This document shows, in pieces, positions 40,332 to 49,176 of a stretch of DNA of 64,000 nt. Under the pieces are notes generated by a model. It did not search any database, had not been told where the DNA came from, and worked only from the letters and a program-made list of their open reading frames with translations. The position numbers and the translations under genes are program-made. The stretch is from Cyanidioschyzon merolae (Eukaryota), in NCBI GenBank assembly GCA_000091205.1, contig AP006502.2, one strand, 5' to 3'. Within the stretch, counting starts at the first letter, position 1, and every line of letters starts with the position of its first letter.

Positions 40332-40677
40332 GATGAGTACACACCTCTCGTTTCCGAACACAAGGTAAACGCCAGCGCAAGTTGAAACTGAGGTCCAGTT
40401 GCAGCCCGCAACTGGTTGTAAAACGATTGAGCCGAACAATGCTAAAGCGCAATACGTAACAGTGCTCCCGTCTACTTGCGATCGGATGCACGCGCATTGC
40501 TCGCGTACCCGCGACGCTGGAAAACGTTCAACGGCAACGCCCAGATCCAACGGGTGAAATGGGATGATACTGTATGAATATGCACTCAACGGACAAAATG
40601 TCCAAGACGACCGTCGGACCTCTTCTCCACCTTCCGATCCCGTTTTCGAGCCTGTGAAATTCTGAAGGTTATGCACC
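40332..40677. promoter_or_regulatory. Shared ~350-bp bidirectional promoter region between AMT (minus) and the rhomboid-like gene (plus)
   Basis: Assigned by position. The two start codons face away from each other across this interval. Confidence 0.4.
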
Positions 40678-41493
40678 ATGGCAAATGAAAGAAAGCCTTT
40701 GCAACCGGTGCCCAGACCGAGCGTCAACGGAGCACCAGCGACGGCAACGTTCTTGGTGCTCGGGCTCATCGGAACGCTTTCCATCTATCTCCTGGGATTG
40801 CGCCACTGGGACACGGAAGTGTTCCTGCCGCCGGGTTTAAGTAGCGTCGTTCCAGCCGTGTTTCGGCTCTTCCTCTCTGTTTTTGCGTTTCGGTACCCGG
40901 GGGAGGCAATCTTTGCATGGCTCATGCTATACTATTTTCAGACGGTCGAGAAACAAATGGGTACACGCAAGTTTCTACCGTTCGCCGTGTTCGTAACGCT
41001 GGTCCAACAGGTGCTCCAGTACACCTATGGCCACTGGGTGCGCTCGTTGCCGTTGACCAAGTCGGGGCTGTATGGAGTGGCGTTTGCTGCGCTGGCTATA
41101 AAGGTACACTTGGAGCCGACGGTGAAACATCGATTGGTTGGTTGCACGTTGAGCCAGAAGCAAATGTCGTTGTTGATGGCTGCGTTTCTGGTGTTGAACG
41201 ACTTTCTATTTGATCTGCTCTTCAACCACAAACCCGATGTATATTTGTTCGGTCGAAGCAAGTTCAGTGTATCTGGCCTCATGGCGGCCGTTTTTGGGTA
41301 CACAGCAGGGTTGTTGTATTTGCTTCCGGCACTGGGCCCAGTAGAGCGCTGGCTGGTGCTTCCGTCGTCGCGGAATCCCTTGGTCGTCTGGCTGACGCTC
41401 ATAGCGCATCAGGAACTGGAGACTGTGCCTTATCATCTGCAGTCTGAACACATGCGGCTCCTTGAAGCGGCGTACAATCCAGTGAACTGGTGA
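40678..41493 (+). CDS. Polytopic membrane protein, tentatively in the rhomboid-like superfamily (derlin / Dsc2 / UBAC2-like pseudoprotease)
   Basis: The 271-aa ORF has about 6 hydrophobic helices. SKFSVSGLMAAVFGYTAGLLY resembles the rhomboid TM4 GxSG helix, but the first Gly is replaced by Ser (S-V-S-G). A TM6-like TLIAHQEL follows. No UBA domain is present. Confidence 0.3.
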   Translation: MANERKPLQPVPRPSVNGAPATATFLVLGLIGTLSIYLLGLRHWDTEVFLPPGLSSVVPAVFRLFLSVFAFRYPGEAIFAWLMLYYFQTVEKQMGTRKFLPFAVFVTLVQQVLQYTYGHWVRSLPLTKSGLYGVAFAALAIKVHLEPTVKHRLVGCTLSQKQMSLLMAAFLVLNDFLFDLLFNHKPDVYLFGRSKFSVSGLMAAVFGYTAGLLYLLPALGPVERWLVLPSSRNPLVVWLTLIAHQELETVPYHLQSEHMRLLEAAYNPVNW

Positions 41494-42056
41494 AAGGTTT
41501 GCAGCGGGATTCCCAGCTACCATCGGGGACGGCTCGCGCTGGAATCCGAGTCGGCGTTAGGCGTGCTCGCTGATCGAGACTTTTAGGCCCATTCTCGTGC
41601 TGTTTCATGATCATACAAGGCAACAGCGTCTGTGCGAGGAAGTTTTTCCGCAGTCTGGTGGGATGTGTCGCTACAGCGACGAAGAGTCAGTAGCCTGTCC
41701 AGTGCACATAAACGGATGCATTGTCTAATTCTGCGTACTTGGCCGGGTGTTTTTTTCATTTGTCTGGCACGGACTCCTGCAGCTACCATGATAAGAAGGC
41801 ATCCCCTGCGTCTGGGTAGAGCAGCGTACGTATAGAGGACTTTGACGGACCTGCACAATGACATCGCGGACGCACGCAGCACGTTAGCCGCGTGCATGGC
41901 GCGGCAGCGCAGCGTGAGCGCGTAGCGGATGCGTAGGTGCACCTGCGCGTAAACAATTATGGACATATTTGTTCTGAAAACTCTAAAGGCGCATCATCCC
42001 CTGGCAACGCCGGTGCACGCATTCATCCGTTCGATGCGAGATCGCATGGGCAGGGG

Positions 42057-42057
42057 A

Positions 42058-42104
<47 letters not shown>

Positions 42105-42124
42105 TTGCGTGCGTGCTTGCGTGC
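42057..42124. repeat. (GTGC)n tetranucleotide microsatellite, about 17 units with 2 interruptions
   Basis: gtgcgtgcgtgc...gtgcttgcgtgcgtgcttgcgtgc, read directly. It lies in the convergent 3' intergenic region. Confidence 0.95.
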
Positions 42125-42345
42125 AGCCTTGCATCTCCCCGTTTGTCATGAGGCCTTGCCAACGACGCTTCCGTGTGGTGCCGAGATCAAGCGTTGAGTG
42201 CTGATCAAACTACATGAATAGAGGGTGGAGAGCGCAGCATTGTGGTGCATGGCCTAATCGCAGGTCTGGGAAGCATAAAACCCTGGTTATGCGTTTCAGT
42301 GTTCTCGACTTGGCCTGAGCTGGCATAGCGGTGGTCGCTACCTAT

Positions 42346-44385
42346 TCAGGTCCACGAGACGCCGTGGGTTGCAAGTAGGCGCGCTCCGCGAAGAGACTTG
42401 CTTTCAAATACACGGCGCATCTGCCGCACGAAATGGCGCACTCGACTACTCAACATCACCGTGCCGAAGAATATCGCCTTGCGAATATTTGCCCGCCGCC
42501 GCGAAATCGCAAACGCTGAACCGAAACGCTCGAGCGGAATGCTGAACGCTGCAGCGTACACGACGCTACGAATCACCGTGCGCGTGCCTTGGACAAACGA
42601 AATATACCGAGGCCACTGCCGGATGCGAAAGAGATCGCTGAGAATCTCGGCCCGGAAAAAAGAGAGCACGAGCGCCAACAAGGTCGCGAGGCGATAGAGC
42701 GGCGTCCCGAACTTGAGAAAAAATCGATAAATAACCGCTAGACGGAGCATGCGATATGTGACAGTGAATGCGGCGGATCGCCACGTACGCAAGTGGGTCC
42801 AATGGAAGCGCGGTAGCTGATAGAGTGCCGGCTTGCCGGCGACAATGCGACGACGTTGCAAGTACCAAAGCACATAGCTGCCGCAACCACACGGAACAAG
42901 GTACTCGAGAACTTTGCGACGACAACTGAGCTTCCCCGGCGGCAGCAGTTCATCAAGGCATGTCTCGAGGGCGAGCTTCAGCGTGCGACCCAAATCGCGA
43001 TGACCCCAGAAACATAACGATTCATAGAGACAGTAGACCATGCTTCGAACGATGGTGCGAACGGTAACCGTCGGGCGCGATGCTTGGTCGTACCACAACA
43101 GTGCCCAGCGTTTCCGCCACGGCACCACGAGAGCCGCGGAAGACGAACCGGTTTTCGCGTGAGAAGCAGCGCTGGGTACATCTCTGGCAGATAACCCCAT
43201 GACATGCCGTTCCCGTCGAAGTGATGCAGCAGAACGATCCACACTCTGTGCAAGCGCTTCAGTAGCGCGTCCGGCACACTGAGGTCGCACGATCGCTGGC
43301 TCTGCTGGCGAAGCGCTCTCCACACGAAGAGACACTGCGGGACTCGGCTCCGCTCTATCGTCCGGTGCCACACTCAGGGCCGCTCCATGCCTAACGATCT
43401 CGTCGTCTTCGACAGCTGCATCAGGTATATTCTCGGTTGTCTCTCGTGGTGTGCTCAGCGGGGAATCCTCATGCTGTTCAAGTTTCTGTAACATAAGGAG
43501 ATGGCGGAAACGGCGTAGAGCCTCTCTACGGGCACTTTGCGCTTGCGACGCCTCGTGCTGGCAGCCACGAAGTGAATCAATGGAATTGCTTCTCTTCAGG
43601 TGACCATCTGGCACCATCTTCGGACGCTGCGGTGGAGCCCAGTGATGTGCTGGTAGTACTCGTGCAGGTCCTGGTAACGAACCGCGCCCGGTCATCGACG
43701 GCGCGCAAACGGCAGCAGTGGCAAGTGCATCAGAGCGCATCATGTGCGCTCCGGCCGTCCAGGCAGGTTGCAACACGGCCACTCTGCCGAACTCCTGTGC
43801 AACTTCGTCTAAAAGTACATGGGAGAATGTTTCGCTCACATGCACCGGCATATCAAGGAGGAAAGTCGCGTGCATGGTTGCCTCGCTTCGAGTCCGCTTG
43901 AACAGAAACTCATTCGAACCCGATCGTCGTTCTCGCAACTGTCCATTTATATCGGGAGCTGAGGACAGCAACACTGCGAGTTCTCGCCAGCAGAGCCGCC
44001 TTGGCAAGCCCTCGAGACAACTCAACGAGACACTTCTTCGGAGGTGAGACTTTTCATTCAAAGTTTCACCCGAACTTTGAAAGCTAGGAAACGCCTCCGG
44101 CTCTGATGAACGCAGAAGCACACCCCGAGTTTCGAGACTCTCAGGGTTACGCTCGCTCGAGGCGTCACCACCGAGGGTACCACACCGAGTGCGCCCGTCG
44201 TCGCCTGCGATGGGGCCGTTCAGCCCCCTAATATCAGCAGCATCCGTAACGCGACAAGACGCTGGGAGCACACGGGCAGCCTTAGCGTCCATGATGATGC
44301 AGCCCGTCTCGCACACCAAGGTGCGGAGTGCACGTACCTGACCAAAGCGTCCACGCACGACAACCCAGGCACACGATCCACGCAC
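42346..44385 (-). CDS. Hypothetical protein with a disordered N-terminal half and a C-terminal multi-TM domain
   Basis: The C-terminal ~200 aa (YLVPCGCGSYVLWYLQRRRIVAGKPALYQLPRFHWTHLRTWRSAAFTVTYRMLRLAVIYRFFLKFGTPLYRLATLLALVLSFFRAEILSDLF...AIFFGTVMLSSRVRHF) contain 4-5 hydrophobic helices. No family was recognised. Confidence 0.45.
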   Translation of the reverse strand: MRGSCAWVVVRGRFGQVRALRTLVCETGCIIMDAKAARVLPASCRVTDAADIRGLNGPIAGDDGRTRCGTLGGDASSERNPESLETRGVLLRSSEPEAFPSFQSSGETLNEKSHLRRSVSLSCLEGLPRRLCWRELAVLLSSAPDINGQLRERRSGSNEFLFKRTRSEATMHATFLLDMPVHVSETFSHVLLDEVAQEFGRVAVLQPAWTAGAHMMRSDALATAAVCAPSMTGRGSLPGPARVLPAHHWAPPQRPKMVPDGHLKRSNSIDSLRGCQHEASQAQSARREALRRFRHLLMLQKLEQHEDSPLSTPRETTENIPDAAVEDDEIVRHGAALSVAPDDRAEPSPAVSLRVESASPAEPAIVRPQCAGRATEALAQSVDRSAASLRRERHVMGLSARDVPSAASHAKTGSSSAALVVPWRKRWALLWYDQASRPTVTVRTIVRSMVYCLYESLCFWGHRDLGRTLKLALETCLDELLPPGKLSCRRKVLEYLVPCGCGSYVLWYLQRRRIVAGKPALYQLPRFHWTHLRTWRSAAFTVTYRMLRLAVIYRFFLKFGTPLYRLATLLALVLSFFRAEILSDLFRIRQWPRYISFVQGTRTVIRSVVYAAAFSIPLERFGSAFAISRRRANIRKAIFFGTVMLSSRVRHFVRQMRRVFESKSLRGARLLATHGVSWT

Positions 44386-45292
44386 GCGCTTCGCTTCGCG
44401 CGACGCTTTGCTCGATCGCGGCGCCTTGCCGGTTGCGATCCCGAGGGCGCTGCTGCCGCTCGTCGCTTACAGGTAACACACAGCGATGATTTTTCCGACG
44501 ACAACGCGTTTGTATGGACCATAGATTCCAGATTGCGGGACAGATGGGTATTCATAATCGAAAATGCGTCGACGGTGATGCACTTTACCTCCAAGTTCGA
44601 TTAATTATACTTCCTATCGGATGAACTAGTCGTGTCGTACCTTGTATCGTGCGGCGATTGCCCGCCTTGCTGCACTCGTCGTAGCGCTTGAACCGTTGGG
44701 TAGATGCATCACAGAGACAGAACGGCTTTGGCATACCTCGGCGGGCGTCGGTTCGAGGAATGCTTGAACTGACACGGGGTCAGAGTTTATCACCATGCTG
44801 GGAGCCGGGAAGCCGCGTAGACAGCCCTACTGCTTGCGGCAGCGCAAAGCGATATTATGGGAGTCCACTGCGACCATATCGACGCCCAGACGCAACCCTG
44901 AGCGCCCCCGATCCGGGAATAAACTGTGTTTCGGACGAGCTGCTCGGATCTCAGTAAAGCACTCGGCGCTAGGTGGAGCATGAAGCAAGAGTCTGGCAGA
45001 CTCGTCCGACTCGCGGGACCTTCCGCCTCGAAGGTCAACTTTCGACAATACGGAAACCTTTTCCTCTTTTTAACCCTAACCGTAAAGGGGCAAAGATATT
45101 GTTATGTCGTTGCTAGTTAGTGCTTCGTTTCTCTGCTTTTTTCTGCAGCGCGCTTGGTACTTTGCACCGAATCGATGGCGTTTGCGCCGCCTGTGCCAAT
45201 CGCGGGAAGCGCCTCAGGCCAGACGTGGCTTGCGCTAGGACTTCAGCTCAGGAGCTCGAGCGACCCCGGAGCGGAATGCTCGTCTCATACGC

Positions 45293-47602
45293 ATGAACTG
45301 CAGACGTCAGCTTACAATTAGAGCGCTCCATGGTGATGTAAAAGCTGAAACCTCGGATAAAAGACGCTGGAAACGACGTCTGCGGAGAGACGAGTGTTCG
45401 ATGCCGCCGACAGCGTCCGGCTGGACCCGCGGCAGCCGCTTGGACGCTGCTGGTGTCGCAGGCGTTGGCGGTGCGCAGCCTTCGGACCAGGACGCTGCCT
45501 GCCTTCTCTGGTGCGAACGATTCCGGCCGACGTGCGTTGAGGAGTTGGCTGTGGCGCCAAAGAAACGAGTTGAGATCGAGACTTGGCTCTGTCACGCTTG
45601 GGAGACGTGTTCGAACAGCCAGTTCGAAGCTGCGCCCTGTGCGCCGCAAGTGGCACTCATTTGGGGCCCTAGCGGTGCCGGGGCGTCAGCGACTTTGGAC
45701 GTTCTGGCCACCCAGCGATTTCGAGCGACGGTTGTACGATGGACTTGTACCGATCGCTACTTTGACACCGAGCTGGGAAGCGCCTCAGTACTGGAGAGCT
45801 TTCTAGAGTTTCTGTTGATGGTAAGCAACACGCCCGCGGATGAGTGGCGTGGCAACGCTAGCTTCACTCAACGGAGTTCGGTGACGCATCTACGCCAGCA
45901 GAACCAGCCTGGTGCGGAGCGGCTTGGGGCTAATGCCTCCGCCGGACACCACCACGACCGATATCTCGCCGTCGTCGAGGACTTTCCTGTGGGCATCCAA
46001 GAGCGCGACCACGCAGTTTACAGTTCGTTCCAGAGTCGTTTGCTTGCGCTGCTTGCCGGACTGCGACTGCCTTTGGCCTGGATCTTGCCCAGCGACCCGC
46101 ACTGGCGTGCTCGCCAGATTCGCTTCTTGTTCGGAGGCCAGGCAAAGCTGCCGGATCAGTTGCCGCCGTGGGTGCGACACATTGAGTTTCTCCCGGTGAC
46201 TGAGAGGCGCATTCAAACAGTTTTGCTTCAAATTGCCGCGAGACTGGCTGATGCGCGCGATGCCGATAGGTTTGGACGTTCCTCGGCACTGGAGCAGATT
46301 ACGGCAGAGTTAGCTCGACGATGTGCTGGCGACATCCGTCGGGCCATTCAATGGATGCAGTTCTGTTTCGTGGGCCAGGCGATGGAGCCTATTGCTGCGC
46401 CTGGTACGAAACCAACCAAGAGGGGACGCTTTCTTGAAAATTGGAAATGCTTGTCTGAACTGATGCAGCATTTCGAGGGAAATGCGCGGATCGGTCTCAG
46501 CCATATGATCGCGAGAATTCTCTACGATAAGCACCAAGCAGAAGAATGGCAGATCGATGATGAATACTGCATCGATGACATTGGACGCTCGTGCAATGCT
46601 GATGGAGATATCGGCAACATCACCTTGCCGACAACGGCTACAGAGTGCTCTATGTTTCTCAGTGCTTTGCACGAGAATTTCGTCGAGCATTTCGTACGAA
46701 TAGAGGACGTCGCTTTAGCGCTAGCGGATTTTAGTTACGCTGATATGATGCAGCGCAATAAGCTCGATGTCGAAGCGGTGATCGCGCTCCAAGTTGCTGT
46801 TTGCGGTGTACGCTGCGCCAACCGGTGCCACGCTCCTGCAAGGTTTCGGCCAATTCGTCTGCAGCCACGTCGGTATGGAACGCACGCCATCCGACCGAGT
46901 TCGACGTTGTATGATGAAAACGTGAACGATTATCGTGATGCGACAGGGCTTGGGCGTCGTGCATGGGAGCCGGCTGCGTTTACCATGCGGAGCAAAGCGA
47001 CACAATTACCGTGTTGGACATCCCCGGCGAATGACACGCTGGAGTCGGCTGAGTCCACGGCTCTGTTCCTGGATCCTATCGAGGATGCGGATAGCCGCCC
47101 GAGCAGGGCATCAGAAAACACAGGTCAACCTCTCCGTAACGATTGCACAAGGTCGGCAACACTACTAGAGACCACTCACGTATCGACAATCTGTGCACCC
47201 TGGTCTTCCAATCGTAGGAGGCGCTACAGCGTGCGAGTGATCAACGACAATGCGCTGCCGATGCACAGCGTTTCTGCAAATGCATCACGCATCTCAGCGG
47301 AAGCGGGACGCGCTCCTGGACCCTGGAGCGACCACGAGCCGGCAGCAGCATTTGCGGTGGGTCTCGCGAGCGATGAGTTCGGTCTGAGCGGCGAAGCGCA
47401 CTTACCGAGCAGCCGGAGACAACGCACATCCACATCGGGGACGTCACCCTCGCCAGCATACGAATCTTCAGTCGGAGAGGACACTGTGAGACGAGCCCGT
47501 GTTTCAGAGGCCCTTTCGCCCGACATTGAGCCTCGGGATCAAGTCCTGCATTGTCTCTTGGATATGTATGAGAAACGCACTGACCATTTGTGTGCATCAT
47601 GA
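45293..47602 (+). CDS. RAD17: RAD17/Rad24-family checkpoint clamp-loader (RFC-like AAA+) subunit, with a degenerate Walker A motif
   Basis: LWCERFRPTCVEELAVAPKKRVEIETWL matches the Rad17 N-terminal box (WV.KYKP....ELAVHKKKI.EV..WL). The P-loop position reads LIWGPSGAGASATLD, against Rad17 ITGPPGCGKTTT. YLAVVEDFP is Walker-B-like, against ILVEDLP. ARRCAGDIRRAIQWMQF aligns with the Rad17 sensor-2 region CQGCSGDIRSAINSLQF. Confidence 0.8.
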   Translation: MNCRRQLTIRALHGDVKAETSDKRRWKRRLRRDECSMPPTASGWTRGSRLDAAGVAGVGGAQPSDQDAACLLWCERFRPTCVEELAVAPKKRVEIETWLCHAWETCSNSQFEAAPCAPQVALIWGPSGAGASATLDVLATQRFRATVVRWTCTDRYFDTELGSASVLESFLEFLLMVSNTPADEWRGNASFTQRSSVTHLRQQNQPGAERLGANASAGHHHDRYLAVVEDFPVGIQERDHAVYSSFQSRLLALLAGLRLPLAWILPSDPHWRARQIRFLFGGQAKLPDQLPPWVRHIEFLPVTERRIQTVLLQIAARLADARDADRFGRSSALEQITAELARRCAGDIRRAIQWMQFCFVGQAMEPIAAPGTKPTKRGRFLENWKCLSELMQHFEGNARIGLSHMIARILYDKHQAEEWQIDDEYCIDDIGRSCNADGDIGNITLPTTATECSMFLSALHENFVEHFVRIEDVALALADFSYADMMQRNKLDVEAVIALQVAVCGVRCANRCHAPARFRPIRLQPRRYGTHAIRPSSTLYDENVNDYRDATGLGRRAWEPAAFTMRSKATQLPCWTSPANDTLESAESTALFLDPIEDADSRPSRASENTGQPLRNDCTRSATLLETTHVSTICAPWSSNRRRRYSVRVINDNALPMHSVSANASRISAEAGRAPGPWSDHEPAAAFAVGLASDEFGLSGEAHLPSSRRQRTSTSGTSPSPAYESSVGEDTVRRARVSEALSPDIEPRDQVLHCLLDMYEKRTDHLCAS

Positions 47603-47820
47603 GTCAGCGTTCGATCTGCGGATATTTGCGGATACCTGATCAACCGCTGACGAAAAAGTGCATGCGCAATGACGCGCAACTAGCAATAAGAGACGGTAAA
47701 GTCGTACCGTTAGCTGGCCCTTGCCATTGGGTATATCGAATACGACCCCGCTCTGCCCAGGGCGCGGATATATTCAGCAAAGGCCCGCGCTCGCTAAGCA
47801 GCATTGTATATCGGCAACCG

Positions 47821-47838
47821 TGAGGCCGCTGCTGCTGC
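47821..47838. repeat. (GCT)6 microsatellite
   Basis: gctgctgctgctgctgct, read directly, in the convergent intergenic region. Confidence 0.8.
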
Positions 47839-48492
47839 TGCTGCTGTGAGCGTACGTCTGCCCCTGGTATGCTTCGAGTCCAAGCCCGAGCATATTCCAG
47901 CGCATACCAGGGCGCCTGATTACGGTAACGTATCGTTGATGATGCTAGCCGCAGCTCGCGGGTTACCAGGTTGTGTTGGTATGCGCTTCAGAAGAGCGCT
48001 TGTCCGTTTGCTTGCATACGTGCATGCACGACGCAGCTCTGAACCCATTTGCGCTGCGCAGGCATGCTGCTGCAGTGAACACGAGTTTGAGCGCGGCGCG
48101 TTCAGCCAGTTGCAGTCTCTAGAAGATAAACAGACTTTACGTTGAGCTTACGGGAACCAGTTTCCGTCATGGATGACAGGAGCGTTTGTTGCGCTGGATA
48201 CAGCCCCACTTCGCCACGCTTCTGGGACAGGATGCCCACATATCGATATCTCACGTCCGAGATGCTCTTGAAACGCTCCACCTACCAAAACGCTCAACTG
48301 GAAACTGCGGAAACCTTCTCCGTGAGCACCTGCATTCGCGCCTCCCGCACTCGCCTCGAAAACCAACCTGCATGCAGGTTGATGAACGAGCAGGGGCCGA
48401 TCCAGCACACCTCTCCGCAAACAAACGCAGCAGAACGTACGCGCTTCCACGACACATGGTCACAGTGCACATGCGCCAGAACACATCGGTGA

Positions 48493-49176
48493 CTATACCA
48501 GATGCTTGACGAAACCGAAGCCGATAACAACGACGGCGTACAGTGCCAGCATTGACCAAATCACGAGCATCTCGGTCCTGCCCGGTACCATGTCCGTTCG
48601 CCGGTGGCTCTTGCTTCGATCACATGCATCCAGCAGCACTCCGAACGACTCGATAAGCAAGATGAGCGGGATCACAATCCACAAAACGTTGGCAAAAAAG
48701 AGGTAGACCCACTTGTGGACCCAGCTATTCGCCGGGTTCAGCTCGCGACTGCCGGTGAGCCACTCCGGACCGAACGTCATCCAGTTGCCGTAAATTTCAC
48801 CTGTTGCACAAATCACTTGCCAAAAATGTCGCCAAGGCCGTCGTCGGTATGTCCCATAGGCGAGAACGAGCGCTAACGGACCCCAGAGAAGCGCCGTCGG
48901 CACCTCAAGTGCCGCGGTGCAGTCGTGAAGACGACCCCAACGCGGATCCGCCTTTGCGTACTCTTTCCACGGTAGAGCCATGAAGTGATTTGAGCGCTCA
49001 ACTGTCACGGTGAGGGTAAGGATGAGCCACGGCAGCTCGAGCCCCAAGTGCGTGATCGCGTCCAGCAGGTACCAGACGATCACCGCTTTCTCGCCGGGAG
49101 TCAGCGGGTCGTCTGCCTTGAGGACTCGCGGAGCACTGCCCGAGCTGCTACTTTTATTCATCGCCACGTTCGCCAT
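48493..49176 (-). CDS. EBP: Emopamil-binding protein family sterol delta8-delta7 isomerase (EXPERA domain)
   Basis: LPWKEYAKADPRW aligns with human EBP LWKEYAKGDSRY. LLWGPLALVLAYG aligns with CLWGPLSLWVV. GEIYGNWMTFGPEW aligns with GQIYGDVLYFLTEH. WIVIPLILLIESF aligns with WLVLPGVLVLDA. The 227-aa length and four TM helices match. Confidence 0.9.
   Translation of the reverse strand: MANVAMNKSSSSGSAPRVLKADDPLTPGEKAVIVWYLLDAITHLGLELPWLILTLTVTVERSNHFMALPWKEYAKADPRWGRLHDCTAALEVPTALLWGPLALVLAYGTYRRRPWRHFWQVICATGEIYGNWMTFGPEWLTGSRELNPANSWVHKWVYLFFANVLWIVIPLILLIESFGVLLDACDRSKSHRRTDMVPGRTEMLVIWSMLALYAVVVIGFGFVKHLV

Follow-up and report, generated by a model that had tools for sequence, protein, structure and literature searches.

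The 64,000-nucleotide stretch of Cyanidioschyzon merolae nuclear DNA analysed here (contig AP006502.2 of assembly GCA_000091205.1; hereafter the window, G+C ~55%) carries at 45293..47602, on the + strand, a complete and intronless gene of 769 amino acids plus stop. Its product is a Rad17/Rad24-type protein, and we found that the lysine of its Walker A motif, the residue of RFC-like clamp loaders that contacts the phosphates of ATP, has been replaced by alanine. The replacement is genuine and old, and it is shared by a whole algal clade. In fact, the rest of the nucleotide site has largely been kept, except that in three of the four lineages a second phosphate-contacting residue, at sensor 1, is gone as well. 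To explain these results we propose, leaning towards this view without strong commitment, that canonical binding and hydrolysis of ATP have been lost in the algal Rad17, which would act as an ATP-blind, or at least non-canonical, A subunit, RFC2-5 doing the ATP work.

A Rad17 orthologue by sequence and predicted fold

The open reading frame (ORF) translates into the deposited protein BAM83448.1 / XP_005539484.1 of C. merolae 10D, which is already annotated as "similar to DNA repair protein Rad17-like protein". An earlier sequence-only reading of this DNA had also assigned it to Rad17, and several lines of evidence agree. The protein matches PF03215, the Rad17 P-loop domain, scoring 31.7 bits where the gathering cut-off is 23.8 (E 1.9e-7), and as a single HMMER query it finds human RAD17 (7z6h_B, E 1e-7) in an alignment that lays GPSGAGAS over GPPGCGKT, column for column. 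A profile made from four clade members and run against the PDB ranks RAD17 (7z6h, 5.4e-31) far ahead of Rad24 (5e-8), RFC4 (4e-6) and CTF18 (2e-3), and its match to RAD17 spans the AAA+, lid and collar regions. The two family landmarks that the same reading had picked out, an N-terminal box (LLWCERFRPTCVEELAVAPKKR) and the sensor-2 motif GDIR, are both recovered in an alignment of 92 Rad17 sequences, 88 from outside the clade and one from each of the four algal lineages.

That alignment also yielded a usable AlphaFold2 model, with a predicted local distance difference test score (pLDDT) of 81.6 and a predicted template modelling score of 0.79; a model from a 5-sequence alignment reached a pLDDT of 46.8 and was set aside. 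The model, which leaves out the C-terminal tail (46883..47599), places strands at residues 120-124, 145-150, 223-228, 261-265 and 294-298, followed by helical domains, so that the AAA+ alpha/beta, lid and collar architecture is present. Foldseek against the PDB returns human RAD17 first and then ten yeast Rad24 chains (ranks 1-11), with Rfc1, Ctf18 and Elg1/ATAD5 next. Sequence and modelled fold identify the C. merolae protein as orthologous to Rad17/Rad24, which is the large subunit at the A position of the checkpoint clamp loader. Genes for its expected partners, RFC2-5 and the Rad9-Hus1-Rad1 (9-1-1) clamp, are absent from the window.

The Walker A lysine is genuinely missing

The P-loop GPSGAGAS lies at 45665..45688 on the + strand (codons 125-132), where both the alignment and the AlphaFold2 model place it. 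In the frame of the 769-residue ORF the DNA reads GGC CCT AGC GGT GCC GGG GCG TCA: the glycines and the serine are kept, and the codon GCG at 45683..45685 (+) puts an alanine, A131, at the position of the invariant lysine. The Lys-to-Ala substitution described in the sequence-only reading is therefore real with respect to both the codon and the lysine column of the Rad17 alignment. In the model, strand 120-124 runs into the loop GPSGAG and a helix starts at A131, the first turn of the P-loop helix, with a local pLDDT of 96-98. A GxxGxGK[ST] does not occur anywhere else in the 769-residue protein. GPSGAGAS is thus, on alignment and model, the true P-loop, at the turn from strand through loop to helix in an AAA+ fold modelled with confidence.

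The same reading had allowed for a sequencing or assembly error, and a wrong frame, an intron or an intact P-loop elsewhere in the protein would explain the missing lysine away just as well. We give such an artefact next to no probability. The 24 bases are identical in three more independent C. merolae-like assemblies (Logan run SRR6207159 and two Joint Genome Institute metagenome contigs, four assemblies in total), and GPSGAGAS recurs in fourteen more protein variants of the 90% cluster. Two substitutions separate GCG from AAA or AAG, orthologues carry other non-lysine residues in the same column, and hidden Markov model alignments agree with the predicted structure on where the motif belongs. 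We found nothing in favour of an artefact, although GTAAGC at 45821, immediately ahead of an insertion modelled with low confidence, resembles a 5' splice site. By hand count the introns running from it to the next AG sites would be 76, 79 and 85 nucleotides long, none divisible by three; each would throw the conserved VEDFP out of frame, so an intron here is ruled out, and the deposited protein is identical to the uninterrupted ORF. Because four assemblies agree, orthologues also lack the lysine and the motif sits at the true P-loop, the substitution must be an old, lineage-wide trait and neither an error nor a misplaced motif. The lesson for annotators is that it should be left "uncorrected".

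A loss confined to one algal clade

How far the loss extends was judged from an exhaustive profile search over 1.84 billion representatives, which gave 429 Rad17-type matches. Among the best 150 of these 429 and their cluster members, the column holds lysine in 146 other Rad17s and a different residue solely in this algal clade. The 92-sequence alignment gives the same picture: lysine in 88/88 non-clade sequences, and A, A, L and M in the four algal lineages. The P-loop glycine columns are also nearly fixed outside the clade (G in 88/88, 88/88 and 85/88). Of the six columns that show no variation at all among the 88 non-clade sequences (G125, G128, K131, G346, D347 and R349), K131 alone has changed in the clade. 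The ortholog alignment that the sequence-only reading had called for thus finds the loss throughout the lineage, and the P-loop structure prediction it had also proposed puts the motif on the expected turn.

The four lineages differ in what they put in place of the lysine. Cyanidiococcus yangmingshanensis Rad17, 43% identical to that of C. merolae, has the same GPSGAGAS. A metagenomic relative (protein P0151, loci L001/L002; hereafter the L001 taxon) has GPSGAGLS, with the codon TTA, and a distant relative (protein P0004, locus L004) has GPPGTGMS, with ATG. P0004 is known solely from Logan run SRR31152685, comes from DNA of ~70% G+C and carries PF03215 and PF25812. It is placed with the clade because Rad17 is followed by EBP at its locus too, this EBP and that of C. 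merolae being 67% identical, it is by far the best outgroup match (E 7e-27 vs 3e-17 for the next), and it carries the clade's derived arginines. The ten best non-clade representatives are insect and fungal Rad17s, none of them red-algal, and the comparison set is without Rad17 of Galdieria, Bangiophyceae and Florideophyceae. A word-indexed search for homologues, with the clade profile as query, gave nothing past the three close relatives, one with the P0004 core added a single fungal Rad17 and nothing else, and the one metagenome scan gave C. merolae-like contigs only. A Cyanidium caldarium gene model (P0049, EukProt EP00166 P004712) reads GPPGCSAGVSA at this place, and it was not used: homology to P0004 stops after GPPG and resumes near residue 279, and the stretch in between resembles an out-of-frame or mis-spliced translation, so that the model is broken at the P-loop itself and uninformative. 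The literature that we searched was silent about Rad17 and 9-1-1 of C. merolae, about Rad24 K115E and about any naturally lysine-less Rad17.

From these codons we infer a single ancestral loss of the lysine, followed by drift to Ala, Ala, Leu and Met. This scenario fits the codon paths: methionine (ATG) is one step from AAG, and from ATG one path leads to leucine via TTG and another to alanine via GTG. The swap of the Walker A lysine for an uncharged residue would then have taken place in an ancestor shared by Cyanidioschyzon, Cyanidiococcus and two or more uncultured relatives.

The rest of the nucleotide site

All four lysine-less lineages keep the P-loop glycines, the Walker A serine, the Walker B acidic pair and the sensor-2 GDxR. 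In C. merolae the Walker B strand AVVEDFP (45968..45988, +) retains its acidic pair as E229 and D230, the motif reading VVEDFP there and IVIDDLP in P0004. The sensor-2 GDIR (46328..46339, +) retains a glycine, an aspartate and an arginine that are each invariant in 88/88 other Rad17s.

Sensor 1 is a different matter. In the strand beta4, PLAWILPSD (46070..46096, +), the sensor-1 column is occupied by P266 (46088-46090); topology and alignment, rather than a superposition, served to assign the column. Among other Rad17s, 93% have S, T or N here; C. merolae, Cyanidiococcus and the L001 taxon have P, and P0004 has S. The proline is a second loss in the ATP site, and the sequence-only reading made no mention of it. 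On the alignment, two cis-acting side chains that contact phosphate, the Walker A lysine and the sensor-1 residue, are therefore gone in C. merolae. Membership of Rad17 by descent stands, and it is at these two residues that the protein, judged by its sequence, departs from the family's definition of an ATP site.

Since P0004 is without the lysine but canonical at sensor 1, at the RAD9-binding motif KYxxL, at the phenylalanine that stacks on the DNA junction and at G407 and E149, the comparison suggests that the lysine went first, and that further erosion came later and is specific to the Cyanidioschyzon/Cyanidiococcus branch.

The clade has also gained residues. R92 (45566..45568, +) is arginine in 4/4 lysine-less lineages, in a column where 96% of the remaining Rad17s carry V, I or L. 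Three other arginines are fixed in the clade, R272 (46106-46108), R274 (46112-46114) and R507 (46811-46813), all on the + strand and in columns that are rarely basic in other Rad17s (mostly M, L, A or I at R507). Any of the four may be compensatory. R92, which changed together with the lysine, is the candidate we would single out, strictly as a working hypothesis drawn from the alignment.

Erosion and constraint in the remainder of the gene

Gene order around Rad17 is kept between the window (40666-49176) and the loci of both uncultured relatives (L001, L004), where Rad17 on the + strand is followed by an EBP-family gene on the - strand (48493-49176 in the window). Identity between the window and L001 is 37% for Rad17, 54% for the gene at 42346-44385, 72% for that at 40666-41490 and 88-92% for EBP, which makes Rad17 the fastest-evolving of the four syntenic genes. 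Within the species, the ratio of non-synonymous to synonymous polymorphism (pN/pS) is ~0.5-0.95 for Rad17; the upstream gene has 0.2-0.35 and EBP has 0. The counts are so small (3 synonymous vs 5-9 non-synonymous) that the values are indicative at best. The corresponding ratio between species (dN/dS) is unsuitable, synonymous sites being saturated at 25-45% amino-acid identity.

Two sites of contact with clamp and DNA have also been altered. In human RAD17, the motif 205-KYxxL-209, whose tyrosine inserts into RAD9, is needed for RAD9 to be bound (PMC9371934). Its equivalent in C. merolae is SNTPAD (45824..45841, +), from which both Tyr and Leu have been lost; Cyanidiococcus has SYAPSL, the L001 taxon SYMPSS, and P0004 an intact RYPSL. 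The loss in C. merolae raises the question of how, or whether, 9-1-1 gets bound. In yeast Rad24, an element made of F340, H341, K345 and H351 recognises the 5' junction, on which the phenylalanine stacks (PMC9010301). The equivalent of F340-H341...K345...H351, IGLSHMIARILYDKH (46490..46534, +), keeps H404, R408, K413 and H414, and its Phe has become Ser in C. merolae; the same column is Cys in two relatives and Phe in P0004.

Such signs could mean that the gene is a relic under relaxed selection, with clamp loading lost or exchanged for another role and the missing lysine a symptom of general decay. It evolves faster than its neighbours, its pN/pS is above theirs, and C. merolae is without the Tyr and Leu of KYxxL and without the Phe that stacks on the junction. 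We nevertheless hold decay to be improbable. Full-length ORFs without frameshifts persist in four lineages at ~25-45% identity, and many family-conserved residues are intact, K131 being the sole 100%-invariant column lost. Long blocks also remain conserved in the clade, for example IARILYDKHQxEEW and VAVCGVRCANxCHAPAxFRP, and the amino-acid differences from a strain contig (L003) avoid the core, 8/8 being confined to the N-terminal leader, the insertion specific to the clade and the C-terminal tail. The polymorphism counts that would favour relaxation are, again, very small. Because the ORF is intact in four lineages, the blocks are conserved and the strain differences lie outside the core, we concluded from the sequences that the Rad17 core is under purifying selection and that the gene is functional.

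An ATP-blind large subunit?

What, then, would a functional Rad17 do without its lysine? The sequence-only reading had predicted an ATP-binding-deficient subunit that leaves the ATPase activity to its RFC2-5 partners, and this is also the reading that we favour, though by no means firmly. In such a loader, Rad17 would serve as the subunit for clamp specificity and the DNA junction, while the ATP-driven steps would fall to the RFC2-5 partners at positions B to D. The yeast structures make this conceivable. There, the P-loop lysine of Rad24 hydrogen-bonds a phosphate of ATPgammaS (PMC9010301); in the ADP-state structure, however, the Rad24 nucleotide is still ATP, the arginine finger of Rfc4 is not posed for catalysis, and the subunits credited with hydrolysis are Rfc4, Rfc3 and Rfc2 (bioRxiv 10.1101/2021.09.13.460164). 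The authors proposed a structural role for the Rad24 nucleotide, which would also explain why the Walker A lysine mutant fails, and they found it held in trans by R128 of Rfc4 (bioRxiv 10.1101/2021.09.13.460164). Since the ATP of yeast Rad24 thus appears to be non-hydrolysed and structural, stabilising the Rad24-Rfc4 interface, an ATP-blind algal subunit would have had to replace this stabilisation by protein contacts. The sensor-1 change from Ser/Thr to Pro in C. merolae strengthens the prediction of deficient ATP binding.

Two considerations weigh against an ATP-blind subunit. The Walker A lysine, dispensable in yeast Rfc1 and Elg1, is reported to be critical in Rad24, as in Ctf18 (PMC3865047), so that a Rad17 without ATP needs compensation. 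And the glycines, the Walker A Ser, the Walker B acidic pair and the sensor-2 Arg, retained in 4/4 lineages, are what one would expect of a site that still has a phosphate ligand; their retention weakens the prediction of deficient binding.

In another explanation a structural nucleotide would still be bound, non-canonically, by the backbone of the glycine loop, by Mg2+ and the Walker A Ser, by the sensor-2 Arg, by arginines that the neighbouring RFC subunit supplies in trans and perhaps by a basic residue recruited from elsewhere, with R92 as the candidate. Apart from the lysine and sensor 1, the elements of the site have been kept across lineages that share only ~25% identity, and four clade-specific arginines (R92, R272, R274 and R507) have become fixed. 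The yeast precedent of a structural nucleotide, held also by Rfc4 R128 in trans, would suit such a site, and a weakened site could still be saturated, cellular ATP being millimolar. On the other side, substitutions of the Walker A lysine generally cut nucleotide affinity strongly, the K-to-E change in Rad24 disrupts function, the replacement residue drifts among A, L and M, and sensor 1 is also lost in 3/4 lineages. Taking all this together, we regard non-canonical binding as a serious but rather unlikely explanation and keep to the ATP-blind subunit as the one that we favour. More specific versions of either explanation are speculative and in our view quite unlikely: R92, on the N-terminal helix, could stand in for the Walker A lysine and hold the structural nucleotide or, if the site is empty, the algal complex could be the first eukaryotic RFC-like loader to have converged on the bacterial delta design. 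A stand-in R92 would, if true, be the AAA+ counterpart of the "relocated catalytic lysine" of the WNK kinases.

Other clamp-loader subunits without a working ATP site

The algal protein is recognisably built like human RAD17, S. cerevisiae Rad24 and S. pombe Rad17, with which it shares the W..[YF].P...L.V..KK box, the P-loop glycines, the VEDxP Walker B strand, the GDxR sensor 2, the H..[KR]....K of the junction element and the helical collar. Unlike these proteins, it has Ala for the Walker A Lys, Pro for the sensor-1 Ser/Thr and replacements of the KYxxL Tyr and Leu and the junction Phe, an insertion of ~35 residues ahead of Walker B, and a very fast rate of evolution.

Clamp loaders whose A subunit is not an ATPase do exist, since neither E. 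coli delta (HolA) nor phage T4 gp62 hydrolyses ATP at that position (PMC3331839). Their working mode, in which the A subunit makes the clamp and DNA contacts and subunits B-D use ATP (PMC3331839), is the one that we propose for the alga. However, they are not homologous replacements: the delta site is fully degenerate and gp62 is without an AAA+ module, whereas the algal site lacks the Lys (and in three lineages sensor 1) only, the rest being intact. Moreover, the algal loss is recent and lineage-restricted, in a eukaryotic family that otherwise keeps its lysine.

Among eukaryotic loaders, yeast Rfc1 and Elg1 are instructive, since with them the large subunit of an RFC-like complex need not bind ATP for the complex to work (PMC3865047). 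Yet these are laboratory mutants of other paralogues, in which the native lysine is present, and the lysine of Rad24 itself is critical (PMC3865047), so that a natural loss in Rad17 was not predicted by the yeast data. Within the same pentamer, Rfc5 (human RFC3) provides an ATPase-incompetent E-position subunit, with a naturally degenerate site and a non-exchanging or structural nucleotide (PMC9010301, PMC3331839). The difference is that Rfc5 keeps its Walker A lysine (GPNGTGKKT) and is inactive for want of a facing arginine finger, whereas the algal Rad17 is without the cis-acting lysine.

What ATP does in the large subunit of RFC-like loaders, catalysis or structural glue, is still debated. 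A Rad17 without the lysine, long tolerated by a whole algal clade of which a part is also without sensor 1, amounts to an experiment of nature that bears on the question: either RFC2-5 power the loader by themselves, as their counterparts do in bacteria and phage, or other residues have been recruited to rebuild the site. Genes of C. merolae can be targeted by homologous recombination, and in this genetically tractable alga the role of ATP at the A position is thus directly testable.

Other landmarks and clade-specific segments

The true start of the protein may be M37 (45401), several metagenomic variants being annotated as proteins of 733 amino acids that begin at a Met matching it; residues 1-36 (45293-45400) are without conservation relative to Cyanidiococcus. 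The N-terminal Rad17 box, LLWCERFRPTCVEELAVAPKKRVEIETW (45503..45586, +), keeps W73, P79, L85, K91 and W98, and these residues, together with F77, are present in each of the four clade members. The clade-specific insertion (about residues 184-222, roughly 35 residues), which is poorly conserved and modelled with low confidence (pLDDT <50), separates the KYxxL position from the Walker B strand and has its core at 45869..45940 (+); human RAD17 has ~12 residues there.

The helical collar (LHENFxxHF ... CGVRCANRCHAPARFRP; 46637..46882, +) is strongly conserved within the clade. It is followed by the poorly conserved C-terminal tail (46883..47599, +), in which three short motifs are shared by the clade: an acidic one, FLDPIEDAD (47066-47092), a near-terminal one, LHCLLDMYEKRTD (47543-47584), and a basic one, RRRRYSVRVIN (47213-47245), which is possibly a nuclear localisation or interaction motif.

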